Assembly: GCA_032718475.1 (NCBI GenBank)
Contig: JAUCBJ010006296.1
Coordinates: forward strand, 1 to 33,177
Direction: 5' to 3'
Source of the DNA: Nemertoderma westbladi
Lineage: Eukaryota > Animalia > Xenacoelomorpha
DNA: 33,177 bases
The position numbers and the translations under genes are program-made. Shown here in pieces: positions 5,090 through 33,177 of this stretch. The notes beneath the pieces are model-generated. The model was not told the DNA's origin. It searched no databases and saw nothing but the letters and a program-made list of their open reading frames with translations. The first letter of the stretch is position 1; every line of letters starts with the position of its first letter.

Positions 5090-7512
5090 ACGGCCTCCCG
5101 TGAAATCAGTTGATAGACGTCAGTGAGTTTTAATAGCCCACTGGCCTCTTCATGCTGGTACTCGATGCGTCGCCATTCTCGTCGTAGTCGATGATGAAGT
5201 CGACCGATTATCCTGATGAGAACCGTCGGTGTGTTAGCGTACTCGAGTTGTCCAATGGACCGTAAAGTCCCTATAGCGTTTTTTATTTCGTCCGCGAGTC
5301 GTAGAAGATCGATCGGTTTCGAAATGCTGCCTCCTCTATAGAGGTCTTCGATAATGGATTTAGCCATGGTGACGTTACCGCCGTAAATCGAATACAAACG
5401 GTCGTACGCCAACTCAAAGGCATCGGGAACACCAATAAAGGTTTCTGCTAATACGCTAGTACGGAATATTTCCCGTTCTGTCGACTCCGAGTCACTGGAT
5501 GAGTCGCTGTCATCCGGATAAGGTGGCTGGCGGGTTCGCGTCCGGCGTATTACCTTTTGTCTCACTCGTTGGGGTCCAGAATCTACGGTTCTCCGTCGTT
5601 CGGTAGGCTCTCAAGCCTTCCATGAAGTCATAGGTCTCGTTAAACGTTGTTCGATCCCGCGGGTACTATCCACATCCATTCTCCTCCGTTATTCGGTAGG
5701 CTCGCAAGCCTTCCACGAAGTCGTAGGTTGCGTCGAACATTGTGTCAAAGGTCGAGTAAAGTAGTCGGGTTTCGTAGTCGGTCTATAAATAACTGGGTTT
5801 GCACAGCACGTCACAGGTTTAACTACTAACGGCTTACTTACCTGTTTAATTGTCATAAACGCAGGTTCCTCTCTTTCTACAAGTAGACTACGACTTACTG
5901 TAGGTGGACTAGTTACGTTACCTGCTAAAATTGGTGATGAAGTCGCCCTAGGTTGCGGTATTTCCATCACAACAAACCTGCTACCTTGCGTCGAGCACAC
6001 AGGTGTTATTTCCTTAGGTTTCATAACAAAGACCAGTTTTATCGGAGTCGTGGGTTTGAGCATAGGAATAACTTGGGGAAAACGTTTGCAGTAATCCTCG
6101 ACGAACTCCTCTCCTCGATCTATCGCTCCCACACTTCCTTCCTCGATTCGCTTCGGAATTCCGCGATATCGAGCTTCCATGCGATCCAGGGTAGACAAGT
6201 CGTGTCCAGCTCGCGATCTTATAGATCTATCTCTCGCGTCGAGTTCAAGGTCCGCTTGCGCGTTCGCTGCCTCGCGCGATCTACGATTCAGTTCGAACTG
6301 TAGTTGCATCTCCCTTTCATGTCGATCCGCTACTTGTTGTTGTGCCGCTAACTCCGCTTCCTGTATAGCTAAACGTGATTTTATTTGTGGTGCCTCCAAC
6401 TGAGCACGAGCGTCGGATGCTGCTTTCTTCCGTGCTAACTCGGCTGCGTTTACCCCCGCAACTCGTGCTAACTCGTCAGCTGCTGCCGCCACGGCCGCTT
6501 CTCGCGCTAAGTCTTCCTCCAATCTTCGCATCTCCGAGGCTTCGAATTCGGCTTGCACCTTAGGTTGAGCAATTCTCGCCTCGTCCTCTCTATGTTGTTT
6601 CTCTCCCTCGATGGCGATCTGTGCCATCTGCTGTTGCGCTTCTTCCTCGACGACTTGTTGTCGGCGTGCAAACTCCTGTTGTTGTCGAGTAATTACAGAC
6701 GCTGTCCTACTGACGTCGCCAAAGTCGCTCCGCATGCTAACGAATGATCTATCCATTGGTGGATTTTGGTAGGCTCGCGAGCCTTCCGTAGTAAGAACTT
6801 CCATAGTCCCTCGCGGTTCGACTTCCGGTTCTTCGGTCGGTACGCCGCATCTACGAAGAAAATTGGTGAGCGTCTCTAACCTCCCGTCCAGGCAGAAGAG
6901 TTCTTCTTCCTCTTCGGGTTGTAACAACGCGTCCGAAACTGACTCACCTAGCAGTTGGTCGAACTGCTCCTGTTGAGCCAATCTTATTACTGACTTAAAC
7001 TGGATAAGGCTTTCTCTCGCACTTACCAACTTATCTATTATCTTTACCTGAGTAAAGTTGTTGCCACACAACTCTGCAAGTTCGTGTAAACCTTTAAGTT
7101 TATCTACGGAGGCATGTACCCTACTTTCGATCCTTACCTGTAAGGTGTAGAACTCGTATTTCGACATCGGGGCGGTTAATTCACGTAAAACGTGAAAACC
7201 TTCTCCGAGGTTCCGAGTAATCTGGGCCATGTGTCCTCCTATACTCATAATAACGTTCTCCTGGCTTCCAGTCGAACTTACCATGTCCGGTTCCTGCGAT
7301 CTGGTCTCCGGGATGGTAAGGAAATCTTCGATTCTGCCGTCGCCACGCGTTGCGGCTTTCGGTATTTCCGTTCGGGGTACCGGTGACGCACGCGGTGTGA
7401 CATCGGTAGAATCTAAGTTTCTCCTTATCGGTTCGTCTACTGTCGATCTGTCCGGGTCGCACGAGTCATAGTCGGTAGGGGGGTATCGAGTCGAATGTGG
7501 TGTGTCACTCAT
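5090..7512 (-). pseudogene. BEL/Pao gag N-terminal/core region with two premature stops
   Basis: ORFs 5689-7512 and 4987-5565 share a frame. Contains a coiled-coil region and a Pao-gag-like core (AYDRLYSIYG, LRSIGQLEYAN, IIGRL..RLRREW). Confidence 0.85.
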
Positions 7513-9901
7513 GTCTTATTATATACGTCAAGTACGGGTAATAAAATGTCAAAGTATCGGAATGTTGAAATGTCAAACTTACCTCGGTATATATATAGCA
7601 TATATATACCCTAACCGGTACAAATAAATCAACAAAGTCAGAATGTTGAAATGTCTAAATGTCAAAATGTCCAAATGTCAAACTTACCGTGGTATATATA
7701 TATATCATATATATACCCTAACCGGTACAAATAAAATTAACAAAGTATATAATAAAATATGTAATAATCTAGCCTACTGGCTAAATTTGTACGAATAAGT
7801 GAGATAACGGTATACATTACCAAAATGTAGATCAACAAGTACAAATAATAGGCAAAACAGCAACGTCTAACGGGAAAATAAGTACCAACAACACTACTAA
7901 TTAGACAGTGAAACCCACAAATTTTGAGTACTACTGTGCTTTTAAGTTTGAACGACACGAGTCGTAAAACTTATGCTCCTTTGATCCTCCAGTCGTGCAA
8001 ATTCCCAAATACAAACTGGACGTGGGTCGTTCTGTTTTTGGGCATTGCGGACGAATTTTGTGTCTCCCAAACTTTGCGAAAAGCGGTCTAATCCTCGAAG
8101 CGGTCCAGAAATGAGTCCTTGAGTCCTGAAAAGTCGAAGGTGAGACTTTTACTTCTACTCTACGAAAAATCTTCCTAGGTACCGATACAACTTGGTCTTT
8201 AAACCCTATGTACCTTTTCAAGTACCGAAAAGTAACACCGCACACACACGGCGTAAAACAAATTATTACCAACTAACTAACTATTTATAGCTAGCCAAAT
8301 ACGAATAAAACTACCCTAAAGGCCTACTGGCAGGGGACGTTCTACAAATTACTAACTTTACTAATTTTAAATTGTAAATATGTTCCTACCTTTACAATAG
8401 CTAATAATATATTTATATATATATCTCCTACTGAAAAGTCCAGTAGTATACCGCTTACCAGATCCTAGTAACGATGTATCTTACCGTAAGATCCAGTAAT
8501 GTATATGGGCTCGTACAGTATCTGACAACAAATCCCAGTCCAGGGTGTCTATATAAACAGATACAAATACAAGAACAACTACTGGCGAGAAACAGAGCCT
8601 AGTGTCTATTCTACATACGTGAGCGGGTCTAATGCCTATGAACTAGACAAAAGGATGCCTGTCCTCTAACTGGTGAGGCAGATGTACAGTTACAGTGACA
8701 GACCAAACTCACGGGAAAACAATCCCCACGCAGCGAATCCTAACTATCGCTGACAGACCGAAATACCGTAACTTGCCGCGGTGTGATTTATATGGTTTAT
8801 ATACGAGCCAGTGGATTAACAGACTAGCGTAACAATACTACTAACAAGCGGTAGCAGTCAAAGGGGGTAGTACCTAAAGTAACAATACTGCTGACAGGGG
8901 CAAAGCAGTCAAAGGGGTGCATGCCATCTAAAATACTTGCCGTAAACTAAATATCAGATCCTAAATTTACAAACTACAAATAGTAAATTACAGATAAATT
9001 CTGCCTAAAGTAATCTAAAGTAAACTAATAGCTGACAGGTCTCGAAGGGGAGTATACATGTTTTAGGACGTGTGTGTGTGTTTGTGTTACGAATAAAACA
9101 ATTTTGGTGTATCGCCGTTGTACTAGGTTTCGGTGATTTCTGACCAAAAACAATACCGGGCGCTAGCTACTAAAATAAGCTAGTCGCGCTCTGTAGGGCT
9201 TTATACTTACAAAATGGCGTCAAAGCTCTCTCCCTCCTATCCACAACTCAACCGGGCAATTACGGTGTTAGTAACTACACCCGTGATCGGCACAAATACC
9301 AGATTCTGGTTGTAAGATAAGAAATAGGTGTTAATTGCTACCGTACGTTAGCTGATCTGGTATACAAATTTGATTCTAGAACTTTGTTGCCGCGGTAGTT
9401 AGCTGCAAATACCTATCAGTACGTGGCAAGGCGCGGTAGGATATTAGTAACCTCCCTAGGCCAAGCAAAGTGCCGGTAGCAGAAAGCTGCTCCTTGCCTG
9501 ATCAAATATTTAGGGCTCAGACAGGGGCGGGCAAATGTATAAACTACAAAGTGAACCGGTACAGAACTGTCAGTACTGCAAATCACCAAATTATGGAACT
9601 TGTGCTGTCTGCACCTAAAGTGTACTTGCGCGTACTAACGAACAGCAATAGTTCACACCTGTAGGAGATACAGGTTAATCCGGGGATTTTGGATTTTGCT
9701 TGTTTGCTCCTGTCTAAGTCTAAATATTCGATCCTAAATTTTATGGTGCTCCAGGACGGCGTCACGCTTACCCTGATCTATAGGTCTTACTGCGGGCAAG
9801 GGCGTCAAACAAAGTCTTACCTTCCTCTGACGTGGGCGCTGTATGGCAAGGGGGCATGCTTCAAACGGGCGCACGGGCAAATCTAATGTGGGCACTTAGC
9901 A

Positions 9902-10211
9902 TGTTGTGGACATCTTTCCCTGCGTTGCTGACGGCCTAACGGTTTAGGCAGCCATCCTCCCAATGCTTGGCTGTCCCAACGGTGGACAATTGGAAATATA
10001 CATGTTCAAAATTTACAGTATATTTACAGTTTACAAAGATTTATCAAACAGATTTACTAATGAGTTTCAACAAGAAACTAACAAATGTAACTAGTGAAGT
10101 AACAAGATTAGGATTAGTGATGAGTGATAACCGAAGGCAAACCAGCCCTTTTATACTAAATCTGGGACATAGAATCCGCTAGAACCTTCCAGAGCATTCC
10201 ATGGCCTCACA
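9902..10211 (-). mobile_element. Putative 5' LTR of the BEL element (310 bp)
   Basis: Minus strand reads TGTGAGG...CACAACA with TATAAAAGGG near 10145-10155. No partner LTR in the window, and the next bases (TGCTAAG) are not a canonical TGG PBS. Confidence 0.4.
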
Positions 10212-10267
10212 TTGGAGCAATAAGATGTTCCATGCCCTATGAAAATAAATTGCCCCAAAATGCAAAT

Positions 10268-10340
10268 TTCCCAACTGGGATTCGAACTCGTAACCTATCT
10301 GTAATGTAACCAACGCCTTAACCATCTGACCACTACGCCA
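10268..10340 (-). repeat. tRNA-derived sequence (SINE head or pseudo-tRNA)
   Basis: Minus strand has GTGGTCAGATGGTTAAGGCG (A box/D arm) and GTTCGAATCC (B box). Stems do not close into a cloverleaf. Confidence 0.6.
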
Positions 10341-10794
10341 TGAGATTACCTACGGGTTTTATGTGTACCAATATAAATAGGCATATTACATTACTGTAAT
10401 TTAATCAAAATGCGTCGGATTTTAGAAAGTTTTTACGTTAAACTACAAATGCTACTTTATAGTGAAATAATCCATCATTAAGTGCTTTATAAATAGTTCC
10501 CCAAAGGTGCCGAAGTGGCACCTGACGGATTTTGATTACTCTAAGGTCCGACTAAAGTTTAAGTAAATAAAAATGCGTGATGACCCAAAGTCACTGTGGA
10601 CCCCTCTGTCTACCTGACTAACTACTATACAGTAGAATGTGTGACCAATTTTTTGACCATCATAATGGCTATTATCACGAGCTTGTTGTTCTAGAACATA
10701 AATGTTGTTGAATATCTAATACTTTTTTTAAGGTAGTTATTATTTATTTTTAAAGCGTGTTTCATTGCATTTATATAAACGACTATAATTATCA

Positions 10795-12052: not shown

Positions 12053-13789
12053 GGCACTAGTATAGCCTGTGTGACCATATTTGAACTATAAAAAAACTTT
12101 AGTATATAAGTTTTTTATGGTAGCACTGTAATGTTTTTTTACTAGCTAGTATTTTTAAGTTATAAAAAAAATGTGATAACATTGATATTTCAGGTTTAAA
12201 TATTTGTTGCAGAATTTGTATTAATGACCAAAAATATTAATGATATTTATTGTAATAGGTTACAGTATTTTTATTTTCAAAACATACTACCTAGTAAAAG
12301 AAAAACGGTAGCTATATAGGCCTACCATTGAAAATATGTACTAAGGTTCTAGAATATTCACCAATATTAAAAAACACTCAAAAAAACAATATTATTTTTT
12401 TTTCAAGAATAAGATATAAAAAAAAACACTAGCTAACATAAAAAATATCGGCACTACTGAACTTTAGGGCCCAAAAATTGATTGGAACTAAACAAATATT
12501 ATTGTAAAAGAGATTCAGTTGATGGTATATTTTTTAGCATCATTTACGTTTTTTAATACTCAACTGCATTTTATTAAATAATTGATTTCTAGAATATACT
12601 TTAATTAAATAACATTTGAAGAATAATTGTAACAATATATATTCTAGAATGTCTATTTTACTATAATTAAAACTAAACTAATTAGTACCGCTAGTAAGCT
12701 TACTGCATGTACTGATCTGACGGTTAATACAGAATGATTACTCAGCAGTTATTATTCCCCGGGAAAGAATAACTCAGCAATATAACTCTATGTTAATTTA
12801 GTTATTTTTAATAAGTAATAATATCGGAAAAAAACGATTAATTGGTTAATAACATGACATATTTTTTTAATAATTTGTTATTGTGACAGCCGAATTAATC
12901 CACACAGTATTAATTATGGCACCATTTCATACTAATTAATACTAATTAATACACTGGTATTGCTTGTGTGACGATTATGGAAACTTAAAAAAACGGAAAT
13001 TTTTTTATATTATTTTTGTTATTGGAAAGTGTTCTAGAACATTAGTAGATACGCTTTTTTTATGGTAACTAGTGTTTTTTTACTAGATAATATTTTTTGA
13101 AATTACCTGTATATAAAAATGTGAAAACATTGATATTTCAGGTTTAAACTATTGTGATATATTATGTTATATATTTATGACCAAAAAATATTGATGATAT
13201 TATAACAGTTTACAGTGTATATTAATTTTATTAATTTTGTTTACATTTTCAAAAAATACTAGCTTGTATTAAAACACTAGCTACCATAAAAAAATATCTA
13301 CTAAGGTTCTAGAAAAATCGCCTCCGCTTTGCAGGACATTGCTTTCGCCATGAGGACCAGCCAGTGCATAATCTAGTACTTTGGCAGCCTCATGGAGTGA
13401 ATAAGCATGGTGGACAGCCCATGACTTTCTTGAGACGCATCTTAAAGGACACTGGCCTTGAAGATGCGGATGATCTAGCAAATGTCATTGTTGTGTGTTG
13501 TGGCGGTGCAATTTTGTCGATAAGCCGGCACAGCATTCTTAAAAATGCAGCTGCAATGCAGCATGCCGATCCTAGTAAGGTTCTAGAACATTCACCAATA
13601 TCAAAAAAACATATTACTATTTTTTTGATTTTTTGTTATTTTCAAAAATACTAGCTAGTAAAAAAAACACTAGGTAACATTAAAAAAAAATATCAACTAA
13701 GGTTCTAAAGCATTCACCAATAAAAAAAACTATCAAAAGTAAAAAAAAAATCAATTTTCAAAAATGGTCACACAAGCTATACCAGTGCC
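12053..13789. mobile_element. AT-rich non-autonomous TIR element
   Basis: ggcactagtatagcctgtgtgaccatatttgaa at left matches the reverse complement of ttcaaaaatggtcacacaagctataccagtgcc at right. A second left-arm copy starts near 12951. No clear TSD. Confidence 0.7.
13315..13576 (+). mobile_element. Second 5'-truncated RTE 3' fragment with 12-13-bp TSD
   Basis: Highly similar to the reverse complement of 4711-4976. TSD aaggttctagaa at 13303-13314 and 13577-13588. Confidence 0.92.
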
Positions 13790-13835
13790 ACTATGGCTTT
13801 CTTGTAAATCTAGAGTGAATGTAAAATATCCCTAG

Positions 13836-15544
13836 GCAATGTTGGAATGTTTGGATCTAGTTGGGGAGGTTTCAGTTGCCTGCAAACTGCATTCCATCAA
13901 CCGAAACAGCTCAAGACGATAGTGTCGATTTATTCATCTGACAATCGATACAACCATGACGCACATTACAGAGGGGGACTTGTGCAAGCCAATGGGATGT
14001 TGGCGTGGCACGCGCAGATGTTTGCGTGGATGGCGCGTCCACCATCGGCGGGTGATCATGTTTCCGAGATCGAGTTTAAGGAGCGATGGATGGAACGGCT
14101 GCAAAATATCTGTGGTTGGGGACGCAACTGGTTGCAGCACACTACCGAGGATCAGTACTGGAAACACGGATCCATATCTGCCGATTACGGGAAAGTAAAC
14201 ATCCCTGTGCTTCTAATCGCGGGATGGAATGATCCCTACGTATCAGCCCAACTGCGAATGGCTGGCATGTTGCCTAACGCTCGTATAATAGTCGGACCAT
14301 GGTCCCATCAGTTGCCCGACACAGGAACCCCGGGGCCTCACATTGACTTCTTGGCGCAATGTTTACGATGGTTCAATCAGCAATTGAGGGAAAACAATGA
14401 CGACGGTAATGACCTGGTCACCATGTTCATTATGAAGAGCCATAGACCACAATCTGACCCAGTCCCTGGGAAGTGGGTTGCATTTCAGAATTGGGACGGG
14501 AAATCAACAAGTGAGTCGGGCTCTACTAAACTAATATTCTACACAGGAAATAAGACTCTGGTAACATCGTCATCCGTGGTCGCAGAAAACCGTGTTAGAT
14601 CGGTTCGAATTGAACCAATCACACATGCGTTACGGCCCAGTAAGGTTAGTGCTTGCCCATTCTGTGTGGAAATGTGTTCCAGTGATCAACAACAATCCGA
14701 TGGTGTCAGTGTCTGCTGGGACACTGAACCACTCGTTGATGATGTTACCATAGTTGGCTCGGCTGAAGTTACCGTGATGGTAAAGGTGTTTGGATCATCC
14801 GGCATGGTCTATGCTCGTCTGTGCGATGTTTTTGAGGACAGGGTTAGCACTCTTATAGCCGATGGTGTAATTAATCTCGCGCACCTTGGAGGCCACCATC
14901 CCAATGAAGCGAGATCAGTGGATCCGGGATCCGTCCAAAAGGTCGTGATAACTCTATCCGCTACTGGTTATCAAGTTCTTGCAGGCCACCAAATTCGACT
15001 TGCGATTAATCAAGGCCATTTTCCATCCATATGGCCTTTGCCTAATATCCACGCTATAGAGATATACCAGACGATAGATGCAGAAGAATTATGTAGTTTC
15101 ATTAAGATTCCAACCGTTGATTTGTATAAGTGTTACAATCGTACTTTTGGAGAACCGCATTCCCTTCCTGCAATGCTTTGCAAAGTCTTGGAGAAGAGCA
15201 AAAGACCGAGATACGACCAGAAGCAGTGTGAAGACAAGATGGTATATTCTGAAGTTACTGATAGCGGTTTGGTCCATTATCCAACTATTGGGCTGACCTA
15301 TGGGGAAAGGTCAAAGCGCGAAGAGAGCTTGGTTGGTTACAACCCGACCTCGACTACAGCTAATGTAGAGAACCACATTAGAATGAGTTGGGGCCACAGA
15401 TTTGAGACCGAAATAGAGACAAGGAACACTATGGGATGTTCCTATGATGAGTTTACAATAGAGGATGAAATAGTGGCCCGACTCAATGGCAAAGAGATTT
15501 ACTCGAATTCATCCAGTGAAAGCTTTCCTAGGGGCCTCCTGTAG
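13836..15544 (+). CDS. CocE/NonD-family (peptidase S15-like) serine hydrolase, large terminal exon
   Basis: GNVGMFGSSWGG nucleophile elbow, YWKHGS, GWND (Asp), GPWSH (His) and a C-terminal domain (ARLCDV, GHQIRLAI, WP). Probable acceptor cctag| at 13835, with an in-frame stop just upstream. Confidence 0.88.
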
Positions 15545-16159
15545 AAGAAACTGATTATAAATCTACGCAATTATATTTCGATATTTTTACACAGTTTTGC
15601 GGACCTTTTTTATTATTGTATTTTTAAAAACCTATATACTTTTACATTGTTTTCGTTTAAATGTTTTAATAACACCATAATATAAAATACCATTTTTGAT
15701 ATAAAATTACATGAACTGAAACTACTGTAGTAAAAAATCAGTTATACCTTATTTGCCGTGATATTTAACTAATTGTTCCGAAATATTTTACAATGTAACT
15801 TTAGTTATTAATATCAATGAAGGACTTGGAATAATATCTTAATGAAATACAAAGTCCTTAATGCTTTTCCCTGAACTTGCATTATTCGGACAAGAAGGCA
15901 GAAATTATCAATTAATAGATTGATGTTTGACCCAGGGATACTACTGGTGCAGTGGGCTCCTATGGAATTAGAATTTGTGGTGAGTAACTGGAGAGAGAGA
16001 GCGGCCAACAATTGTGTGAGTCCCAACCGTTTCTGGCCCAACCCTTGGTCACCAGGGAGGCCAGATTGTGAGGGGGGGTGGGGGGGGAGGGATTCTAGAG
16101 TTGGAGGAAATGTTCCACCCCGACCAACCAAGCCATTGTGGGCGGGGTGAACCAGTGCT

Positions 16160-17129
16160 AAACAAGTGTGGGGTGCACCACATATGTGTACTAAACCAGT
16201 GTGGGGTGCACCACATATGTGTACTAAACCAGTGTGGGGTGCACCACATATGTGTACTAAACCAGTGTGGGGTGCACCACATATGTGTACTAAACCAGTG
16301 TGGGGTGCACCACATATGTGTACTAAACCAGTGTGGGGTGCACCACTTATATGTACTAAACCAGTGTGGGGTGCACCACATATGTGTACTAAACCAGTGT
16401 GGGGTGCACCACATATGTGTACTAAACCAGTGTGGGGTGCACCACTTATGTGTACTAAACCAGTGTGGGGTGCACCACATATGTGTACTAAACCTGTGTG
16501 GGGTGCACCACATATGTGTACTAAACCAGTGTGGGGTGCACCACATATGTGTACTAAACCAGTGTGGGGTGCACCACATATGTGTACTAAACCAGTGTGG
16601 GGTGCACCACATATGTGTACTAAACCAGTGTGGGGTGCACCACATATGTGTACTAAACCAGTGTGGGGTGCACCACATATGTGTACTAAACCAGTGTGGG
16701 GTGCACCACATATGTGTACTAAACCAGTGTGGGATGCACCACATATGTGTACTAAACCAGTGTGGGGTGCACCACATATGTGTACTAAACCAGTGTGGGG
16801 TGCACCACATATGTGTACTAAACCAGTGTGGGGTGCACCACATATGTGTACTAAACCAGTGTGGGGTGCACCACATATGTGTACTAAACCAGTGTGGGAT
16901 GCACCACATATGTGTACTAAACCAGTGTGGGGTGCACCACATATGTGTACTAAACCAGTGTGGGGTGCACCACTTATGTGTACTAAACCAGTGTGGGGTG
17001 CACCAATGTAAACTAAACCAGTGTGGGGTGCACCAATGTAAACTAAACCAGTGTGGGGTGCACCAATGTAAACTAAACCAGTGTGGGGTGCACCAATGTA
17101 AACTAAACCAGTAAGGGGAGCACCCATGT
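16160..17129. repeat. Minisatellite: 25 x 33 bp, then 4 x 30-bp variant
   Basis: Unit aaaccagtgtggggtgcaccacatatgtgtact, then aaaccagtgtggggtgcaccaatgtaaact from 16985. Confidence 0.97.
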
Positions 17130-18009
17130 ACGCGTGCGGTACACGGCTACGTACATAAACTCGAGAATAAGTGCCAGGAACATAGATGAATATTCTGTAG
17201 AGGACTCAAATATCCAAATAAACCACAAACACAGGATGCTAATTAACTAGTAATACTATTTTATTGTAGCCCATAAGAACATATTGTTATTGAATAATAA
17301 TTGCACAGATACTTAGTGAAAATAAAGATCATATATACATACATATAAACAATGTTAGTGCTGATGGGTGGAAAGCAAATGTATCAAAAGGTTTACCGGT
17401 ATTAAGGAAATACAAAGACGAAATTAATGAGTATAAAATAATGACATCTTATTAAAATCAATCTAGTTAAATATGTATCGCAAATAAGGGAAGATGATGC
17501 ATTCCTTGATAACCTTTTTATTCGTAAGATAAAGTCTTGGCCTATATAAATTAAAAGTAGAACAAAGATACAGCACAATATTTACAGATTGACTATTAAC
17601 GACAATATTGCATTTAAGGAAGTTATAAAAAATAATACTACAGGGATTATCAGCTATTTGAGTATTTGTTTGCCTTAAACGTCACATGGTTATTATCAGT
17701 TGGTTTTCTCTGGTTCAATAATAAGACCCAGTTATAAATTCTCCGGAATAATATAATTATTGTATATACAGTAAAAAAACAAATATAACAAAAATATTAT
17801 TATATCGAACGATTCGCCTATATAAAAGGATGAATTGAGTATAAAATCACAAAGATTAACTGGTAAATTAATAATTTCAGTGCAAAAATCAAAGTAACTC
17901 TTGCGAAAATCAAAGTAACTCTTAGTTTGTTGTAATAGGAAGGAAAAAATGATTTCAGAAAGTTTGAAGGTAAAACGGGGCTAAAAATAAATATAATGAC
18001 TTCAAGAAA

Positions 18010-18801
18010 CTATTCAACCAACTTCTTGAAACCACTACGGACCCCGAGGATGAAGTTGGTGAAATCGTTGGTGAGATTAAGGTTGTCGACAAGCTCGGTG
18101 ATGTTATCCAAGGGAGGTTCACAGACACTGACCACGTAGACGGAAGTGGCCCCGGATTCCTGGACGGCAATACAGAAACGGAAGGCTTGTTCGGCGTTGG
18201 TACAGTCGATGTGGGTGAAGACAAACTCCACCTGGTCGCTGCAACTCCGGCGAATCTTCAACCCGAGTCGCTCTACGAATAAAGACAACGCCTTCTCGGG
18301 GTTCGTGCAGATCGATTTCGCTTCCATGTGGAGCCGCAACAGCTTCTCCTGCGCAACGAGTTTGTTTTCTATCGCTTTCAACTCGTCTTCGTTAAATTCC
18401 CTGTCCTCTGTGAGGGCGACTGTCTCCTGTTGGATCTCTTCCAGATCTCGCTTGATGATGTTTACTCGATCTATTCGCTCTTCCATTGTCTTTCTGCTCA
18501 GCTCAGCCTGACTCTGCAGCTGGAACAAGGTCTGCTCCAACTTAGATACTTTCTCTTTCCCTTGCTGCATATTGTTCTCGTGCTGCTTCGAGACTTTAGC
18601 CAAGTATTGCAACATTTCGTCGCAGTCTTTGTTGAACGCGTGATCGGTGGAGGAATCAGTAGCCGTATCTACAAGTTGTTCGGAAAAAGCCCCGGGAACG
18701 CGTAGTGCATCCTCTTTCCGAGGCACGCTGACGTATCCAGAGCTCGACGCGTCCCCGTATCCCGGGCAACAATCGCCTTGTTCGAGTTCAGTCGGGTCCA
18801 T
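18010..18801 (-). CDS. SPC25: Kinetochore protein Spc25 (Ndc80 complex)
   Basis: Coiled coil followed by an RWD-like domain LGLKI..FVFTHID..FRFCI..Y.V..CEPPL..LNLTNDFTNFILGVRSGF. Uninterrupted 263-aa ORF. Confidence 0.92.
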   Translation of the reverse strand: MDPTELEQGDCCPGYGDASSSGYVSVPRKEDALRVPGAFSEQLVDTATDSSTDHAFNKDCDEMLQYLAKVSKQHENNMQQGKEKVSKLEQTLFQLQSQAELSRKTMEERIDRVNIIKRDLEEIQQETVALTEDREFNEDELKAIENKLVAQEKLLRLHMEAKSICTNPEKALSLFVERLGLKIRRSCSDQVEFVFTHIDCTNAEQAFRFCIAVQESGATSVYVVSVCEPPLDNITELVDNLNLTNDFTNFILGVRSGFKKLVE

Positions 18802-19075
18802 GCGATGTGAGTTCGGGCAGTACCGATATACACAGTACTGCAGTACAGCAGTAGGTCAACCGGAAAACCAATAAATAAAATTGCTAAATGCTGAAATGCA
18901 ATCAGGAACAGGAACACTGGTCAGCTGGTTACAATTTGTCCATTTTATAGCCAGAATGTGTCCTACATTTATCCATAGAAAACCTGAAAACAATGTTAAA
19001 TTTGGGTAAATCTTTTCGACCTACGCGTAGGCCTACGCGTAGCTACGCGTAGTTCGCAACATTGGGTCATATATC

Positions 19076-22206: not shown

Positions 22207-24574
22207 TATGTTTAGAGTTCAAAAATAGTTTACAAAGGAAATAGGCCGATGGTTCTTATCGATTCTCTGTGCTTTTTATTGCCTTTGTTCACGATAGGGC
22301 AAGGATATATTTAATATGTTAACCCCTTGACAAGGGAAGGGGGAGACTAAATTGTTTACCATGATTGGTTGCACTTGTTATTTGACCAAACAATTGAATT
22401 TTATGCAGTATTTATCAGCTTTCGCTTAACCACTTCACCGGTAGATTGGTAGCTTACTACTGTAGAATATTTCAATAATCCAATGGAAACAAAGATGCTT
22501 GAATCATGAGACGTGAATTTTAAGTCTACTTTTTATTCATCCTGTGTTTGTACTGTATGTGAAAGAGCCGAATATTTTTTATTACCAGTGATGTATGTAG
22601 AGATATGAGTTTCCGATTCTGTTATTCCATTTGTCTGATAATCAGATACCTGACATATACCAGTATACCGATACTTGCCTAACAACTCAACCCTACCGGA
22701 CCTGAAATGAAAAATCATTGTTATCAGGACTGCTAGTACTGTAGTAGCACACCTACGCGTAGTTTCAAAATACCTACGCGTAGTTCCAAAATAACTACGC
22801 GTAGTTTTAAAACACCTACGCGTAGTTGTTAAAAAGGCAGTAAGTCTGGCCCTACCGGTAAATGACAGGAATGGAAGTTACAAACTACGCGTAGCTACGC
22901 GTAGCTACGCGTAGGCCTACGCGTAGGTCGAAAAGATTTACCCTTAAATTTATCCATAGAAAACAATGTTACATTTCATTTCAAAACAGGCAGCGCAGCG
23001 GCAGCGAAATTCTTACTTTGGCATTACCGTATATCAAAATAATTATTAAGCAGTGTAGGCCCGAATAAACATTATATATTGAGGTTTAGATGGAGTGCAA
23101 TGGAAGGGGAAAATTTATTTCATGGGACGGGTAGTTTGTCTGGTGTCCGGTGGAGTACAGAGTGAGCGGCATGTGATGGGAATGGTTAAGCGCGTTTTAT
23201 TTGTCTGTTAGAGTTTGCACTTTTGAAAACACTGTGCGCTCGTTTTGGGCGCTTTCAGTTAGGGTAGGTTTCTTAAAAAGGAAGTTTTTTTTCTTCCTAT
23301 ATAGGAAGGAAATCGTGCTTCATATATAGGATCAAGTTTTTGCCATTTTTCTGAACATTTTCTTAATTATCTTTTGAAATAAATTTTAGCGGCATATTTG
23401 AAATCCTGGCTATTGGGGGATAATCTTTTCTACGCTAGTTGTGAAAAAAAAACTAAAAAAAAACTATCTGTGCGTTCTCTTTCTATAGCCATTTTAAAAA
23501 CGTTACTTTTTCGAAGAATTTTTTATATAGGAAATCTTTTTTGGACTTCCTATTTAGGAGTTTACCTTTTTTAACCGTTTTAAATTTTATGTATAGATTT
23601 TTCTTAATTAAGAAAAAATATTCTCCAGCAGTTCATTACAAATAGATGGACTTGGGCTGGGATAGGTACCTGGAACCTGTATGTACCCCCCACCCTGCCT
23701 TGGCTATATGGTTTGCATTTGCAGACAATATAAAACTACATGATTCCCACAGAGGGATGCAGTGATGCTTGATGCGGAGGGTTTTTTTTTATAATAATAA
23801 TCAGATTGGGCCTAATAATTATTCTTGCAATATTATTTTTACAATAATTAATACAATATAATTTTACGATTATAATTATTAATAATTATTCATGCAATAA
23901 ATTTTTTTTTAAATAATTAATAAAAATTATTAAAATTAAATTGCACTAAATTTACACATGGGTGAAAAATATTTATTAACATTAAAAAAACAATATATAT
24001 TATTATACAATTATTTCCTATCAGGACGCCATGCGTCAATAGTGACAACAAAACAATATATATAAACAAGTAATAGTAATCGAACATAGTATAATCAAAA
24101 CAATAATTAATCCTCATCCTAAATCGTACCTATATATCCAGCACTAGAAAGTTAGATCGGTATATAACGAACCAAACAGCTGACACAATAAACCCCTCAC
24201 CGTGGTGGCAATGTGTAATAATAGATAAATAGTCCAAGAGTTATATCAACACATTGAGTTTATAGCTTGCAATAAAAATTTCCAATTAATAAAAATTTAT
24301 AATAATAATTGTAAAAATTACCAGTAGTTACGGAAAAAATTATTTCAAGAGAAATAAGAGAAGTATTTAAATTGATAAGTCAAAAAAATAAAAATAATGC
24401 CCTTTAAATGCGTCAGGAATTGAATTTACTAAAACTCATAAAATAATTAGTTTATGTTGAGAAACATGATGCACAAAATCTAATCTGGGGACCATATATC
24501 TCTCTGTAAGACTCACCTTTGCCTGAGCTAAACGATTCCTTGATACAGGCAGCAATACCTGAACTTGAAGTTTA

Positions 24575-25970
24575 TTTAAGGCAGTGATTTTTTTATGTCC
24601 TTTTATTTGACTTTTTTTGTCCTCCTTTTTTTACGAATTGTGCATAATGACTTTTGTTGTCCCTTTAATGACTTTTGTTGTCCTTTTAATGACTTTTTAT
24701 GTATGTATTTCTTAAAACTGTCAGACTGCTGATTTCTGGACTGTCAGACAGTTGATTTCAACATGCCTATGCCAAAACATTCAAAATTTGTTGATTTCTG
24801 GTCTGTCGGACAGTTGGTTTCACTATGCCTGTGCCAAAACATTCCATGATTCTATGATTCATAGACTATGAGATAGATTTCCATATGCGCCTGTGGTAGT
24901 AGACTCTAAATTTAATAGTTTGTGGTTGTTGTCGATAATCGATTACCACATGACGTAGAAAAACACTCATTTTATAGCCAAAAACAATCACCAATTGATG
25001 GAAAGGAGCGGGTTAAGGCCGGATTTTCTAACCAAAACAATAAACAGTCACTTTACCAAATGAAGGAATGGAGCAGGTTACAGAGGCGGGCCTTTCTAAC
25101 CAAAACAATAAACGATTATTTAACTAATTGAGAAAGGACCGGGTTACAGAGGCGGGATTTTCTAACCAAAACAATAAACAGTCACTTTACCAAATCAGGG
25201 AAAGGAGCAGGTTACAGAGACGGGATTTTCTAACCAAAACAATAAACGATAACATTACCAATTGAGAGAAAGGAGCAGGTTACAGAGGCGGGATTTTCTA
25301 ACCAAAACAATAAACAGTCACTTTACCAAATCAGGGAAAGGAGCAGGTTACAGAGACGGGATTTTCTAACCAAAACAATAAACGATAACATTACCAATTG
25401 AGAGAAAGGAGCAGGTTACAGAGGCGGGATTTCCTAACCAAAACAATAAACGATCACTTAACTAATTGAGGGAAAGGGGCAGGTTACAGAGGCGGGCCTT
25501 TCTAACCAAAACATTAAACGGTCACTTTACCAAATCAGGGAAAGGAGCAGGTTACAGAGGCGGGATTTTCTAACCAAAACAACCGGTCAGCCGGTAGGCC
25601 TACCAGTACCGTATTTAAATGGTTGGCTACACATTAGGCCTACAGCAGTACCGGTGCCGGTACCGGTACTAAAATACCTGCTTTATACCTACATCTGTAC
25701 ATGCAATACTGCAAAATAGTGCTCTATATACTAATACCGGTACTGATAGCCTGAGAGAACAGCAGTAGAGACACCGGTAGCATGGACACTAACAGTAAAT
25801 TTCTGGAGGACATAAAAAGTAAAAAAAAACTAATACCGGTACTGATAGCCTGAGAGAACAGCAGTAGAGAAACCGGTAGCATGGAACCTAACGGTAGATT
25901 TCTGGAGGACATAAAAAGTCAAAAAAAGGACAAAAAAGGATTTAAACAGACAATAAAAATTATTGCGCTT
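24575..25970. mobile_element. Possible degenerate foldback element carrying tandem repeats
   Basis: Left arm with gacttttt/gtcctttt units mirrors right-arm aaaaagtc/aaaggac. 99-bp duplication at 25731/25830. Confidence 0.4.
24965..25582. repeat. 68-bp tandem repeat, ~9 copies, alternating variants
   Basis: aaaggagcaggttacagag at 25201, 25269, 25337 and 25405. Tails alternate cagtcactttaccaaatcagg / cgataacattaccaattgaga. Confidence 0.92.
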
Positions 25971-25980
25971 ATTTAATGAC

Positions 25981-27588
25981 TGTGACGGAATCCGCTTGGA
26001 GTTGGCAGTAGCGAATCCCGACCGGTGTGCGAATTGTACGCGTCGTCGCGTCCGTGGGCTGCTGAACTAGTTAGTACTGGATATATATTAGGCCGAACCC
26101 GTTGAAAATGACTTCCCCCCCCCCCCCCCCCCCATGCTATCTTCCCGGTGAAAAGATAGCAACAACCTTAAGTGCGCTTCAATTCCGCTGGAATCCAATC
26201 TAATATTGGATGTGGGGTGGAATTTTCTTTCTCAGGGTCGGCTTTCCAGGCCGGTCCCCATGGGTCTGTTATCACTACCCATCCTTGGTACACCTGCGAG
26301 CTATGCCATACCAAGGCACATTATCGGGTCCCACGCATGTGTGCACCATGTCAGAGAGATCTGTCTAATGTCTCATCTTCCTACTCTAGTCAATTGGTCC
26401 CCAATCCCAGTAGCTAGTTGGAAAAGGTTATATTTTAACTATAGTGCATACATTGATTATATTGGGTATTAATTAATTAATTTTACGTACGTACATACTA
26501 ATTGCACTTGATTAATTGCACTTAGGAGTTTGTACTGTTGCGTTCATGTGGTGCCTTCCAGGCACACTTACACCCCTGTTCCTGAGTTCTAGTTTGCTCC
26601 CCCCGTCTTCGGGAACCATCTGAGTTCCTTGCCCCTATCATCATCTTGCCTGGGCCGTTTCCTTCCTTCCTGTTTATCCTTGAGGCTACTCATCCTCGCC
26701 GATACCGTATTACCAAGGGGCCGTCCAAGTATGACGTCTGCACTTTTCCCCAAAATGTTGACCCCCTCCCTCCCCTAAATCAGATGTCATCAGATAGGCG
26801 TTGACCCCCCCCCCCCCCCCCCCCTCCCCTAAATCAGATTTTAAAAAAATTTTGTAATAAACTATTATATTATGAAGATTATTTATAATCACTTGTAAAT
26901 CATTCAATTACTATTTTTAATCAAATTATGAATTATATAATTATAGTAAATTATTAATTAATATTATAATATAATAATAGTTATTCAATCAGCCAGGGAC
27001 TGATTCTATCCTCAATAATAGACAGAATTGTAGTACTGTAGTCTCTAACAATCATTAGCTTAGGATTAATGTTTCATTTTCAGGCGAACCCCAGTACCGC
27101 AGTACCCCAGTAGCACGCGTCCCAATCACTGAAACATGGTGACTGGTAACTGAAACAGAAGGTCGTGCTACGGGCCTTCGGGGGCTTCGAACAATTAAAA
27201 TAGGCAAGCTATCCTTCTAGCACCTATAAATGAACATGCTGACGTCAGATTTTGGCTGACCCCCTCCCCTCCCCTCATCAGCACGTCGTCAGATTTTCCC
27301 AACCCCCCTCCCCCCCCTAAAGTGCTGAGGTAATACTTGGACGGCCCCCAAGCCCCATTGTTGGTTCTTTGGGCGCAGGTGTTATCAACTCTCGGTATCG
27401 CTTCGCAGGTGGTCCCACTGAGTGTCCCTCATGTCTCCCTCTGGTAGCGTCCCACAAAATCATCTTCATCGCGCGCGGCACGTGTTCCCCCAGAAAGTCC
27501 CTGAATTCGATCCTATTCTCTGGTGACCATCTGTCCAGGTATCTTTGGGTGTTGATGACCCCTCCATACGATGCCACTGTCGCTACCT
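25981..27588 (-). mobile_element. LTR element C: short (~133 bp) 3' LTR, PPT and internal region
   Basis: tgtgacgg.atcc terminus shared with 29459. C-tract at 26114-26133 is the PPT on the minus strand. 26134-26285 is homologous to 30033-30182. Confidence 0.7.
26717..27348. mobile_element. Harbinger-like MITE in element C
   Basis: TIR ggggccgtccaagtat / atacttggacggcccc with 3-bp TSD caa. Confidence 0.88.
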
Positions 27589-28188
27589 TGTGAGCGGATT
27601 CAATTCCGCCTCACCAAACCCCCATAAAGTGGGAAAGAGCGCCTCTAAGCAATATTGGGAGCACGAGGTTGATTACCAATCAACCTCGTGTCACCCCAGT
27701 AAACGGGGACAATAGGCCCCAGAGAACACACACACAATAGGGGTCAGGGGTTACACCCCTGAGAGAGAGGAAAGTAACAGCAGCGGGGGGGGGGGGGGGG
27801 GGGGGGAAACACCCCCGCAGGACAGAGGGTGTGAAGTAGGTTACTAGCCAATGGGGGGAAGGCATCGGCTGAGTAGGATAATGCGGCCAACCGTGCAGTA
27901 TAATATTACCGGTAACTGTGTTACTTGCTCAGTTTACTCAGTCAGTTCAGTTAGGGTGGAATGGTGATTTCTATCACCATCCGCTACCGCCACTCCACTA
28001 TGTAATACCTATTTACCGGTACATCTTTGCTGACTTAACCCTGTTAATTGTGCTTATATCATATTACCATATACCTTCATATCAATCAAGAACTTTGGAA
28101 CCCTTAAAGAACCTTTTCACACACACGGCGGGGACGCGTAGATAGGAAAACCCACACGGATAAATCGGGGTCCACGGATCCTGTCACA
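27589..28188 (+). mobile_element. 5' LTR of element A (600 bp)
   Basis: TG...CA ends, both matching the reverse complement of 29459-30023. CCAAT near 27848, TATAAT at 27899 and TCAGTY Inr-like motifs at 27929-27952. Confidence 0.88.
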
Positions 28189-28239
28189 GTGATAGAACGT
28201 CCGTAACCCACTGTGACTCCAGCCACAAGGTAAAGAGCG

Positions 28240-29458
28240 ATGAGTCGAGAAGAAAAGACGACCCGCCGCGGACCCCGGACGGCGATCTAACGATCCGCGA
28301 GGCCACGGCGAGACGGTATCGACCCACGACGCCGGATCCGTCGACGAACGATCCGGCAATCCAAGATGGAGGGGGGCCGTCTACAACAGGGAGGACGAGT
28401 CGGGAGGAGAGAGAGACGAGTCGACACACAGCGGCGGTCGACGTACCGATGTCGCCGGCCAGCCACAGGCCGAGGGCGACGGACGGCCCACCGGAACGGC
28501 AACGGTGGAGCCGCCGGTACGACGCCGGACCCGAGGGAGAGAGGAGATGTCGGCGACGAGGACGTCGGGGTCGTCCGGCTCCGACGAGCCTACGCCGCGA
28601 CCCGGGAACAACTGAAAGAAGCTAGAGGAGGGGCCGAGATAGACCAGGTGAAGTTGAAAAGGCGACTAGGTGAGTCGAACAGATACTTTGATTACCTAGT
28701 GCGTTCTGGGCAGGGAGAACTAGCCAGGGAGAGAGCGAGAGGGGTTGCCTTCGAACTGTTTGGGCTATGGGAACGTAGGGGTATGGGGCCTGGTGCAGTG
28801 TACATAGGGCCATACTCAGTCGATGCCCGGGAAGCAAAATTAGTGGGTTGGAGGAGACCGCAGGAGGGCGAATCCGAGGTTAACCCCGAGGATTCGGTCT
28901 CGTCGGTCGGAGGAAGTTCCGGGAGGCGGGGGAAAGTTAGTAGGACGGGAAGACGGAGGGAATCCGTCACAACCGATAAGTCTGCTACATCCTCCGCAAA
29001 AGAAAGACGGATGCGGAAGATAAATCTGGCATATAAATTAGGAATGGAAGAATTAGAGCGGATAATGGGGGAGGGAAGGAGCAAGAGAGTGAACGCAAAG
29101 AGCGTGAGGCAAGAGAACAGAGCGTGCGGTACACGTACAGTACGCTAGTAGCCGTACGGGCGGGGGGGTAGTAGTAGTACGTTAGGAAATGTTGGTATTA
29201 ATAGTACCGTAGTAGGTAACCCTAATCCCTTTATTACAGGAAATGTTTTACCTGGTAGTAGTAATTTAAATTTAAATACAAATAATTAATATAATAATAT
29301 TCAGAATAATCCAAATAATTCGAATAATAATTCAAATTTAGAAAATAATAAAATTCTAATTTAAATAATTTAAATAATAATCCCGTTTCAAATTCTAATA
29401 ATTCTAATAACTTAATTGATTTAACAAATAATATTGGGAATGGTGCTATTAATGTGAA
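28240..29458 (+). pseudogene. gag-like N-terminal ORF of element A, cut by element B
   Basis: ATG at 28240 is in frame with ORF 28366-29148 (one stop). VNPEDSVSSVG followed by a Ser-rich stretch resembles BEL gag N-termini; an Asn-rich tract follows. Confidence 0.6.
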
Positions 29459-30023
29459 TGTGACGGGATCCGAGAGGATCCCGGTTTATCCGGCGTTGTT
29501 TATCTACGCGTCCCTGCCGTGTGAATGGAAAAGGTAATAGTTGTTCTAGTGTCGTTGTCGAACTCTGATACACGTTGAGATAATAAATGATATGAGTGAT
29601 ACAGATAGCACAGTAGATAACTGAGATAATAAGGTAATATACCGGTAATATGGTGACGGTGGCGACGGTCTTAACAGTCACCGTACTGCCTGACTGTACT
29701 GGGATAACTACTGAGTAAACTAACTACAATGATTACTGTACAGGTAATATATACTGCACGGGTTGGCCTCATTGCATTACCCAGCCGGTGCCTCCCCCCC
29801 ATTGGCTAATATCCCTGTTGTCGCCCTTTGCCCCCCTCTGAAGTGCTTCCCTTCGCCCTTGCTATTCTCTCTGTCAGGGGTGTAACCCCTGACCCCTATT
29901 GTGCGTTTCTCCTTCCCACTTTGTTGGGGTGACACGAGGTTGATATTTGTAATCAACCTCGTGCTCCCAATATTGCTTAACGGCTTACTTTGTGGGGTGT
30001 TAGCGGAATTGAATATGCTAACA
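29459..30023 (-). mobile_element. 3' LTR of element B (565 bp)
   Basis: Minus strand TGTTAGC...GTCACA, preceded by PPT GGGGGGGAG (30024-30032). Confidence 0.9.
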
Positions 30024-30439
30024 CTCCCCCCCATGATATCTTCCCGGTAAGAAGATAGCATCCAACTCAAGTGCGGTACAATTCCGCTGGATCCCGACCT
30101 AGTGTCGGGTGTGGGGTGGGATTATTTCCTTTCGGAGACGGCTTTCCAGGCCGCTCCCTATGGGTATGATAATGCTACCCGTTTGCCTGGCGTCCCGTGT
30201 CGGGCCGATCGTGCGCTTCTCCCACACGACTTTTGTTTCCCCAGCACTTTCGCCACTCTAACTCTACTCTACTCTCACCCCAACTCTTACACTCTCGGAC
30301 CTCTTCGTCCCTTAATCTGCCTCTTACTTCTCCCCCCCCCCCCCACACTGGAATTGCGCTCGCACTCTCTCTATACTTTGCACACCACCTCTCTACTCTC
30401 TGTCACCCCCTAAGGCCCTAATTTCTAATGCTACCCCTG

Positions 30440-31640
30440 TGCTATCATACTATCTACCTACTACTTACTTACTAACTATCTAACTCTCTTACTCTAACTA
30501 GCTCTACTAAGTCTGACTAACTCCTACTAACTCTCTAAGTCTAACTAACTCCTACTAACTCTCTACTTCTACTAAATCTCTCTAACTCTTACCGACTCTT
30601 CTAGCTCTTTAACTAGAACTCCCTAACTCTACCCACTCTTTTAGCTATGTGGCGCTTGCGGTGCCCACAACCACTCTACTATCTGGCACCCTATGTGCCT
30701 CTCTACTACTCAACTACCTTTCTAACTCTACTACCTGGCACCCTATGTGCCCTCTCTACTACCTCTAACTCTCTAACTCTACTACCTGGCACCCTATGTG
30801 CCTGTCTCTACTATTCTGCTCTCTGGCACCCTATGTGCCCACTCTACTATTTCTAACACTCCTAACTCTACTACCTGGCACCCTATGTGCCCTCCCTACT
30901 ACTTCTAACACTCTAACTCTACTCCCTGGCACCCTATGTGCCCGTCTCTACTACTCTACTCTCTGGCACCCTATGTGCCCTCTCTACTACTTCTAACACT
31001 CTAACTCTACTACCTGGCAACCTATGCGCCCGTCTCTACTACTCTACTCTCTGGCACCCTATGTGCCCTCTCAACTACTTCTAACACTCTAACTCTACTA
31101 CCTGGCACCCTATGTGCCCTCTCTACTACTCTACTCTATCTACATCTTACTCCCTTTCGTCTACTCGACTGCACGTGACGCTCTGAGTGCCGGCAGAGTG
31201 GGTACGTTAATTATGTGAACTACTACTAACTCTTACTAACTCTACTAACTCTCTACTAACTCAACTAACTCTAACTACTAACTTCTTGTGCCCGGCACCT
31301 CTTGTGCCCGGCACCCACCCTAATTAACATACCCTGCTCTTACATCAAACACGTTATCACGTCCGTGCCCCACTAAGTTCAACGCATCCCCTACTAACTC
31401 TAACTACGTGGCGCTTGCGGTGCCCACAACCACTCTGCTTACTACTACTACTTTCTACGTGGCGCTTATGGTGCCCACAACCACTACTGCTACTACTTTC
31501 TTTCTAACTAACGGTACTACGTACCCTCTTACTAACTTCTCTAACACTCCTAACCAGCACTAACCAACGGTACTACGTACCCTCTAACTAACTCTAACTA
31601 ACTAACGGTACTACTCTCTTACTACCTAACTTCTACCTAC
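30440..31640. repeat. G-poor tandem repeat region inside element B
   Basis: About 11 copies of ctggcaccctatgtgcc at ~35/51-bp spacing (30683-31118) in ctact/ctaact low-complexity sequence. Confidence 0.9.
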
Positions 31641-31671: not shown

Positions 31672-33177
31672 TTAAATAATTATTTTATATTTTATGCGTG
31701 GGAAGGGCGTCTCGCCCTCATTCCCACCCCCCTCAGTCCAAAACTTTGGACGACCAAAAACTCTCAGGTGCCCCTTCTTCCAGTAGGCACTCTCCCGCTG
31801 CCCTCTTATACGCCCTCTAACTCTTCGCCACACTCTCTTCGGTACTACCTCTGCTGGCCTCCCCCTTCGTATGTGCGCTGGCATTAAAGGCCTCGACGAC
31901 CCCCGCTCGTACCTCGGTATACACGATGCCCGCCCATGCAATGCCCCCTCGCATCGTGCCAGCCCTGCGTGCGTATGCAACACGCCTCCTTCTACTTTCC
32001 CGGCTCCTTTATGTTTGCTCATGGGTTTCTCTGCCCCTGGTCTAGTCCTTTCACATCCTCTCCCTTTCCAACACTCTCCGGATCTGTGTCTTTTTACCAC
32101 ACATCGATGACATAGTCCGTTTGCGTCTGTGTAGGCTACACGATCTCGTTTGGGCAACGCTTGCCAGTACTTGCAACTCCTGGTCTTATGGGTTCCGTCC
32201 CGATGTAAATAACATTCGAATCCTGGATTATAGCGTTTCCTGTATAGTCCTTCACCTATCGCGCCTAGGTTTATATGTACCGATTTAGTGTTTTGGTTGA
32301 CTAGACTCGGCCTACTGGGTATATTGGGATTGTGTTTATTTTTGGTGTTATTTTCTTTCTGTCCCTGCCACGGCGTGGCCCTGCTACCAGCTAACTGTGG
32401 ACTAGCAGTCCCCTGTATGGCCGCGTGTGGTAGCGACTGTCCGCACGACCTGTTCTCGTCCAAGGGGTTCGATGTTCTTGCTCCTATTGGGGTATATTGT
32501 CGATATTGTGATGGGGGAATGTCACCCTGCCCCCCCCCCCCCCCCCCCCCCCACCGGTATGTTTGGTACTGGGGTTGATGTTAATATATTGGGGCCCATA
32601 CATCTATCTCCAATAACTCTCCCCTCCCTGGATATATGTTATGTCCCTGTGTATTATAGTCATGCTGCTGTACCGATATAGGCCTACCCACTTCCTGCCT
32701 ACCTACCGGTATGTACTCCGCGGCTTCCGGGTTTAATCCCGTCGTTCGCGCTACCCTATCGCCTATTCTATCTCTCCCAGCATGACCTATAATAGTATAT
32801 GCAGTAAGGCCTACAGTATGTCCTGCAGTCTGCATGTGCCCTTTCGAACCGAAGTTTATTCTTCGCGAATCTCGAATCTCCCCGCGACTACCGCACCCTC
32901 GATCGGCAGCTATATCCCGTCGGGAAGCTTCTCTTCGATCCCCTCTCCTGTTCTCGACTTTGCATTGGTACGTCCTGTACCCCTCTCTTGGCGTGCGGTG
33001 CGTTTCTCCGGGGTGACGGCGGCAATCTCCCGAAGTTCGACCCCACTGACTCCCTAACTCCCTGCGTGGCCACATATGGTAGCGACTGTCTCACCTTCGG
33101 AAGTGCATTCGCCGCATTATGTTCGGGTTTAGGCCTGTTGTATTCAGCTTTGGGTGCCTTCCCCAAACTGTCCTCAC
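31672..33177 (-). pseudogene. gag-like region of element B with BEL-type zinc knuckles; no pol downstream
   Basis: CYLHRDGTHKTRSC..DR..GLCHRCVVKRHRSGECWKGRGC and LNPEAAEYIP. ORFs break around the C-tract near 32530. Confidence 0.7.

Follow-up and report, generated by a model that had tools for sequence, protein, structure and literature searches.

A BEL/Pao-type retrotransposon family of Nemertoderma westbladi with a candidate self-primer inside its own long terminal repeat

The 33,177-nucleotide contig JAUCBJ010006296.1 of the xenacoelomorph Nemertoderma westbladi (the whole stretch analysed, referred to below as the window) carries a retrotransposon family with long terminal repeats (LTRs) that probably primes minus-strand DNA synthesis from its own RNA and not from a transfer RNA (tRNA). 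In one member, element A, the nine nucleotides (nt) at the primer-binding site (PBS) directly after the 5′ LTR lack the TGG of a tRNA-primed element and are the exact reverse complement of a 9-mer within that LTR. In a sister, element B, the internal 9-mer has changed, and public sequencing contigs place the correspondingly changed PBS after B-type LTR ends. The complementarity, its position, the covariation and the missing TGG are established at the level of sequence.

Primer-binding position and internal complement of element A

In element A, a broken gag comes after the LTR, and element B interrupts the element at 29458. The end of LTR A is fixed at 28188 because a common GTCACA terminates three related LTRs, namely A, B (at 29459) and the remnant D (at 25981). 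An earlier reading of this DNA (the original prediction) had described the PBS at 28189-28197 as lacking TGG and exactly complementary to 27969-27977; both properties were recovered when recomputed from the sequence, and the coordinates it gave for the PBS, the internal site, an inverted repeat and a hairpin are all correct. Counted from its first letter, the PBS finds a perfect complement in LTR A for at most nine nucleotides, and the match is entirely Watson–Crick and begins at offset 0. Matches of at least 9 nt at offset 0 arose in 15 of 10,000 dinucleotide shuffles of LTR A, and with offsets 0-3 allowed, the fraction of 5,000 shuffles reaching the LTR A match was 0.0026. In control comparisons, the host-side flank of each 3′ LTR, B and D, agrees with its own LTR for just 3 nt, and the site of A matches LTR B for 6 nt and LTR C for 4 nt.

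Covariation in the B subfamily

At the position aligned to the internal site of A, LTR B reads TGTTAAGAC, as had been noted, from which it was predicted that the PBS of a B-type element would be the complement of this 9-mer. Public contigs show that PBS after the ends of B-type LTRs. Four runs supplied the contigs aligned at the end of LTR B; X1 and X3 represent one sample, and X2 comes from a different sample and study. The majority line of the loose ends at 29459 ends in the nine letters of B (window 29676 to 29668) with nine of nine agreeing in X1 (10 contigs) and likewise in X3 (6 contigs), and in X2 (5 contigs) the last seven of the nine B-type letters are present. No TGG is seen after B-type LTR ends in the contig majority lines.

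The B-type PBS compensates all four differences between A and B. By arithmetic, the chance of such agreement is 1 in 262,144 for the nine letters and 1 in 256 for the four non-A letters, the latter figure treating the five letters common to A and B as given. The complementarity ends at nine in both subfamilies. For the A type, no variant letters are listed at 27969-27977 among the covering contigs. One divergent X2 contig aligns exactly through 28197 and then departs, and in X1 a variant LTR end is followed by the first seven A-type PBS letters.

Promoter, hairpins and junction

A CCAAT box and a TATA-like element are read from the sequence in LTR A and are also present in LTRs B and C. Transcription is predicted to start near 27931, and the candidate primers of A and B would lie ~38-45 nt downstream of the predicted start. 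The internal site was said to sit in a hairpin of its own, and an 8-base-pair (bp) stem is indeed found at 27961-27980. Its stability in A is well above that of shuffled sequence (z -3.4; 1 of 200 shuffles equally stable), and the matching region of B has a z of -1.1, which is not significant. A second hairpin, in the unique 5′ region (U5) of the LTR, recurs at one position in A, B and D, whose sequences there differ. Its z is -2.2 for B and D, but within 50 nt of A another fold ranks higher; all four indels listed in B-like contigs lie at its loop.

A 9-bp inverted repeat had further been reported to span the LTR–PBS junction, and its arms (28183-28191 and 28209-28217) prove perfect on recheck. 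Such a repeat is found at a frequency of 0.0026 among 100,000 shuffles, a post hoc figure. It is known from one copy only because almost no contig covers 28200-28233.

Family assignment

The BEL-like gag of the original prediction is supported by a PEDSVSS motif in A and by BEL/Pao matches of the B gag. The form P-x-D-S-[VAI]-S, a marker drawn from BEL/Pao proteins in this analysis, is present in 26 of 120 BEL/Pao polyproteins and in 4 of 12 BEL/Pao loci. A gag-motif profile scores A with an E-value of 5.6e-6, which is circular because the profile rows were picked by the motif. Direct word-based homolog and Atlas searches with the Gag of A returned no match. The B gag matches a BEL/Pao polyprotein in blastx (E 9e-5) and the BEL/Pao locus L007, described below, in tblastn (E 9e-6). 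Its ten phmmer matches include three with DUF1759, one with an aspartyl protease and five with no family, and the top match is an unrelated protein. According to a part of PMC554778, the BEL/Pao Gag carries a triple Cys-His box. Two of the three boxes are recognisable in the broken frame of B, the first having H at its second ligand.

The LTRs have the TG...CA ends of BEL/Pao elements, and a polypurine tract precedes the 3′ LTR B; the 18-nt tRNA-Arg or tRNA-Gly site of that group is absent from A and from B-type ends. The chromovirus Pol that marks the Ty3/gypsy elements of the Tf1/sushi group was not found with this family, the gag features indicating BEL/Pao, and the window holds no pol of element A or B. 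Elements A and B are filed here as BEL/Pao-type on gag evidence.

BEL/Pao relatives from other hosts

A scan of genome contigs yielded 12 BEL/Pao loci (L003-L014), three of which (L008, L010 and L013) were excluded as too short. Among the nine examined, L012 and L014 are without a repeat and L004 and L011 have just a terminal overlap, leaving five with a readable LTR–PBS junction (L003, L005, L006, L007 and L009; the LTR end of L003 was placed by eye). In L004, whose LTR is incomplete and of uncertain end, there is no PBS–LTR match longer than 5 nt.

TGG is absent after the LTR in all five readable relatives. The longest contiguous PBS complement within the element's own LTR is 11 nt in L007 and 8 nt in each of L003, L005, L006 and L009, and every PBS matches its own LTR best, with a tie between the sisters L005 and L006. 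Of the four tested by shuffling (L005, L006, L007 and L009), only L007 has a match that is strong alone (1 of 300 shuffles). The gag motif of A is common to four of the five, whose reverse transcriptases (RTs) are 42-63% identical to one another, except for one pair at 86%.

In L003, L005 and L006, a pyrimidine tract and CAG precede the 8-nt complement, which grows to 11 nt over a predicted intron; none of 60 shuffles reached this spliced match for L005, and none of 60 for L006. The PBSs of L005 and L006 differ at three letters, and the predicted exon ends follow these differences. In these two sisters, AATAAA starts directly past the candidate primer (LTR position 728 in L005 and 816 in L006).

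All seven complementary tracts (28189, the B type, L003, L005, L006, L007 and L009) have GT at or adjoining the priming end, at LTR offsets 0-4, with L009 taken in a spliced reading with one mismatch; this common GT is possibly a cutting preference. The contigs that carry the twelve loci are assigned to bacterial genomes and are probably misbinned host animal DNA.

Comparison with known systems

Self-priming has been described for the Tf1/sushi group and predicted for Tcn1 and TAR (in passages of PMC6317226 and PMC4600332). Parts of three further papers state that the first 11 bases of Tf1 pair with the PBS and that the RNase H cleavage falls between bases 11 and 12 (PMC7175516), that this pairing takes place within a three-duplex structure (PMC10085805), and that about half of Tf1 cDNAs bear a copied PBS at their 3′ end (PMC11042837). 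The present family resembles Tf1 and Tf2 of Schizosaccharomyces pombe, Tj1 of S. japonicus and the Tf1/sushi group generally in lacking a tRNA site, in having a PBS that adjoins the LTR and complements the element's own repeat region (R), and in the adjacent U5 stem (in the portions available of PMC7175516, PMC10085805 and PMC4600332). However, the Tf1/sushi elements are Ty3/gypsy chromoviruses, whereas the family described here has a BEL/Pao-type gag. The Tf1 primer is formed by the first bases of the transcript, whereas the site here lies ~38-45 nt inside the predicted transcript and in a local hairpin. In terms of the three-duplex "pretzel" of Tf1, the U5 hairpin is found in A, B and D, but the flanking duplexes are either not above chance or known from a single copy.

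For the plant elements Tcn1 (Ty3/gypsy) and TAR, Houba and Osr-1 of Ty1/copia, self-priming was likewise predicted from PBS–LTR complementarity alone, according to a part of PMC6317226; these belong to other superfamilies and to plant hosts, unlike the family here. The Belpaoviridae and the olive fly element Achilles share TG...CA LTRs, a polypurine tract and a Gag with Cys-His boxes with the present family. However, the profile of the International Committee on Taxonomy of Viruses gives the Belpaoviridae as tRNA-primed, with an 18-nt tRNA-Arg or tRNA-Gly site (PMC8742986), and A and B are without such a site.

PBS, tRNA and priming do not occur in PMC554778 and PMC3118150, and the available portions of PMC3601003 and PMC3286476 hold nothing on BEL/Pao priming. 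A search by title and abstract start found no report of self-priming in BEL/Pao elements, with subscription journals, Repbase and supplements lying outside that search. The Caenorhabditis elegans element Cer7 is reported to carry a tRNA-like primer of its own, on which the search found nothing. The proposal for A and B would be a variant of a known mechanism in a superfamily where the sources that could be read do not describe it.

Proposed mechanism

In the scheme that we infer for the start site, duplex formation, cut, priming and copy-back, transcription would start near 27931, ~38 nt ahead of the site. The nucleocapsid of Gag would open the local hairpin, and the site and the PBS would pair beside the U5 hairpin. 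By analogy with Tf1, RT/RNase H, acting in trans for copies without pol, would cut 3′ of 27977 and yield a ~47-nt 5′ fragment, the last nine bases of which would prime at the LTR edge. Plus-strand synthesis would then copy the primer back into the PBS. Because such copy-back would transfer changes in the site to the PBS, it would explain the full compensation between A and B. This exact geometry, with a 5′ copy of R, an internal cut and a long tail, is a serious candidate that we place slightly short of an even chance.

A wider proposal is offered more tentatively, and we regard it as doubtful on balance: a broad BEL/Pao sub-lineage in marine animals may have abandoned tRNA, with the primer of the present family cut inside R behind a 38-45-nt hairpin-switch leader that opens only in the particle, and with sister lineages splicing their primer.

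Alternative explanations

Several observations weigh against the proposed scheme. The duplex has 9 bp compared to the 11 of Tf1, and the caveat of the original prediction that the site is away from the predicted +1 stands, with unequal spacing from the TATA-like element (70 nt in A vs. 77 nt in B). Equilibrium folding favours the local hairpin and gives the site–PBS duplex a probability of 0.0; forcing that duplex costs at least 4.5 kcal/mol, a modelled cut at 27977 raises its probability to 0.01-0.14 with the 5′ arm of the hairpin present, and additional pairing flanking the nine base pairs does not exceed chance (P 0.15 and 0.20). For B, the evidence consists of a majority line drawn from mixed contigs, with an overall agreement of 0.50-0.54 (30 letters), presumably this low because contigs with the PBS occur alongside random flanks of 3′ and solo LTRs. 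The B site and the B-type PBS come from separate molecules and never from one B-type read, the two X5 contigs show no match to the predicted B-type PBS, and one high-depth X3 contig departs at 28188 into 30 unread letters. Among the relatives, the contiguous matches are weak alone in L005 (18 of 300 shuffles), L006 (32 of 300) and L009 (14 of 300).

The same self-priming could also proceed by another geometry, a sub-case of the general claim that is possible if rather doubtful, in which transcription starts at or just before the site (the true Tf1 layout) or the primer derives from the 3′-end copy of R or from a second packaged RNA. After the modelled cut, pairing is favoured only when the 5′ arm of the hairpin is absent (duplex probability 0.5-0.7 for a fragment starting at 27967), the initiator (Inr)-like motifs repeat up to 16-20 nt before the site, and Tf2 has alternative starts, one with the primer and one without (in a part of PMC5341516). 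However, no TATA-like element lies ~30 nt ahead of the site (a single one was found in LTR A, at 27899), and neither LTR A nor LTR B contains an AATAAA or ATTAAA to set a 3′ end there. The main rival to self-priming, which we consider unlikely, is that the pairing is regulatory (hiding the PBS or controlling translation or packaging) while priming falls to a host RNA, for example a tRNA half. In the usual tRNA layout, both 9-mers can be read in one register as U, anticodon, A (UCU in A and GUU in B), and the hairpin loop of B at 29670-29678 (minus strand) resembles the anticodon loop of tRNA-Asn, with stems that do not fit. This likeness could, as a speculation, hint that self-primers arose as captured tRNA halves. 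However, the flanking stems are unpaired as an anticodon arm, and an Rfam scan of 25900-30200 gave nothing tRNA-like. Half-tRNA priming is known in Ty1/copia lineages, according to a part of PMC6317226, but the rival requires two host RNAs that match the LTR of each subfamily at the identical nine positions, and a regulatory duplex need not start exactly at the LTR edge, as the A and B duplexes do. Assembly of the primer by splicing inside the LTR, the arrangement seen in L003, L005 and L006 (an 11-nt match over a predicted intron), is highly improbable for the present family and was rejected for A and B: their 9-mers are contiguous with no AG before them, and LTR A offers no spliced join of at least 10 exact letters or at least 11 with one mismatch. 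A chance match in a decayed copy draws on the 33 of 300 shuffles that reach nine when G:U pairs and offsets 0-4 are permitted, a rate that makes the single copy A, taken by itself, modest and suggestive evidence. Nonetheless, the observed match is all Watson–Crick at offset 0, and a different 9-mer was forecast for B and then found; the B-type contig result refutes chance for practical purposes and leaves it exceedingly improbable.

If self-priming is correct, tRNA independence would reach a third LTR superfamily, suggesting repeated origins, and the wider sub-lineage proposal, if true, would make it a major and diversified strategy there. A primer cut inside the transcript instead of from its first bases would widen the scope of RNase H-based primer generation. 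For host control, such elements would presumably offer no site for silencing by tRNA fragments, and the finding is relevant to annotation tools that demand a PBS of tRNA type. As natural variants, A and B provide a ready matched and mismatched pair for testing.

Family members and other features of the window

The window is repeat-rich DNA with three related LTRs (A, B and C) and the remnant D (Table 1). Pairwise identity among A, B and C is 70-82% over aligned columns, with values of 70% for LTR A against LTR B and 72% against LTR C. Element B comprises a broken gag, tandem repeats, a polypurine tract and the 3′ LTR; it is without pol, and complex repeats (30390-31630) occupy the place where pol is expected. 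The sequence preceding remnant D matches the 3′ untranslated region (UTR) of B at 79%. Summed contig depth reaches tens of thousands at 28263-28345 (gag start) and 29459-29495 (end of LTR B), which points to a large family, although depth is not copy number.

Table 1. Coordinates of the LTR family and of other features in the window.
Feature	Position	Strand	Remarks
LTR A	27589-28188	+	600 nt, TGT...ACA; 5′ LTR of element A; ends set by alignment
Predicted promoter	27848-27952	+	CCAAT 27848-52, TATA-like 27899-906, repeated Inr-like TCAGT 27929-52; read from sequence
Hairpin with candidate primer	27961-27980	+	outer 5 bp kept in B, one pair changed on both sides
Candidate self-primer (9 nt)	27969-27977	+	70 nt past TATA
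U5 hairpin	28166-28183	+	5 nt ahead of LTR end
Junction inverted repeat	28183-28217	+	9-bp arms; known from one copy
Primer-binding position	28189-28197	+	directly 3′ of the CA of the LTR; without TGG
Broken gag N-terminus of element A	28240-29148	+	PEDSVSS motif; no Pfam match
LTR B	29459-30023	-	565 nt; 3′ LTR of pol-less sister element
B candidate self-primer	29668-29676	-	77 nt past its TATA; 4 of 9 positions unlike A
Polypurine tract of element B	30024-30031	-	precedes LTR B
Broken gag of element B	31672-33090	-	two Cys-His boxes, BEL/Pao-like spacing
LTR C	1-355	-	third family member; truncated by window start ahead of primer site
Remnant D	25981-26112	-	short, LTR-like; behind a copy of the 3′ UTR of B; U5 hairpin and GTCACA at end
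BEL/Pao pol	1239-4766	-	Peptidase_A17, E 5e-36; link to this LTR family not established
Peptidase_S15/PepX_C hydrolase	13814-15544	+	uninterrupted open reading frame, E 9e-30
Spc25	18010-18855	-	uninterrupted open reading frame, E 1e-16

A broken BEL/Pao gag-pol lies at 1239-7515 (minus strand), with no integrase recognised before LTR C, and its Pol is 40-45% identical to cnidarian, echinoderm and mollusc proteins. A short peptide is repeated in both its gag and its pol (repeat family at 3143, 5591 and 5684). LTR C was considered as the 3′ LTR of this pol-bearing element and dropped, having neither a polypurine tract before it nor the 3′ UTR of the family; no clear 5′ LTR or PBS of the pol-bearing element was found within 7500-10400. 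Viral contigs yielded no match to LTR motifs and no relative in protein-led scans, and two metagenome matches to the LTR motifs were rejected as isolated 19-nt chance matches.

A 270-nt repeat, 95-98% identical between its copies, occurs in opposite orientations at 4707-4977 and 13314-13580, one copy interrupting the gag-pol; by eye it resembles the 3′ terminus of a long interspersed nuclear element. The Peptidase_S15/PepX_C gene could have come from bacteria by transfer. Arrays of 33-nt and 68-nt tandem repeats, together with complex repeats, are found at 16023-17147, 24998-25607 and 30390-31630. On the minus strand at ~10275-10340, motifs that by eye resemble A and B boxes mark a tRNA-like stretch, probably the head of a short interspersed nuclear element; ARAGORN does not call it and called no tRNA elsewhere in the window. 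A perfect 49-nt inverted repeat (19004-19052 and 22895-22943), its arms 3.8 kb apart, possibly represents the ends of a DNA transposon.
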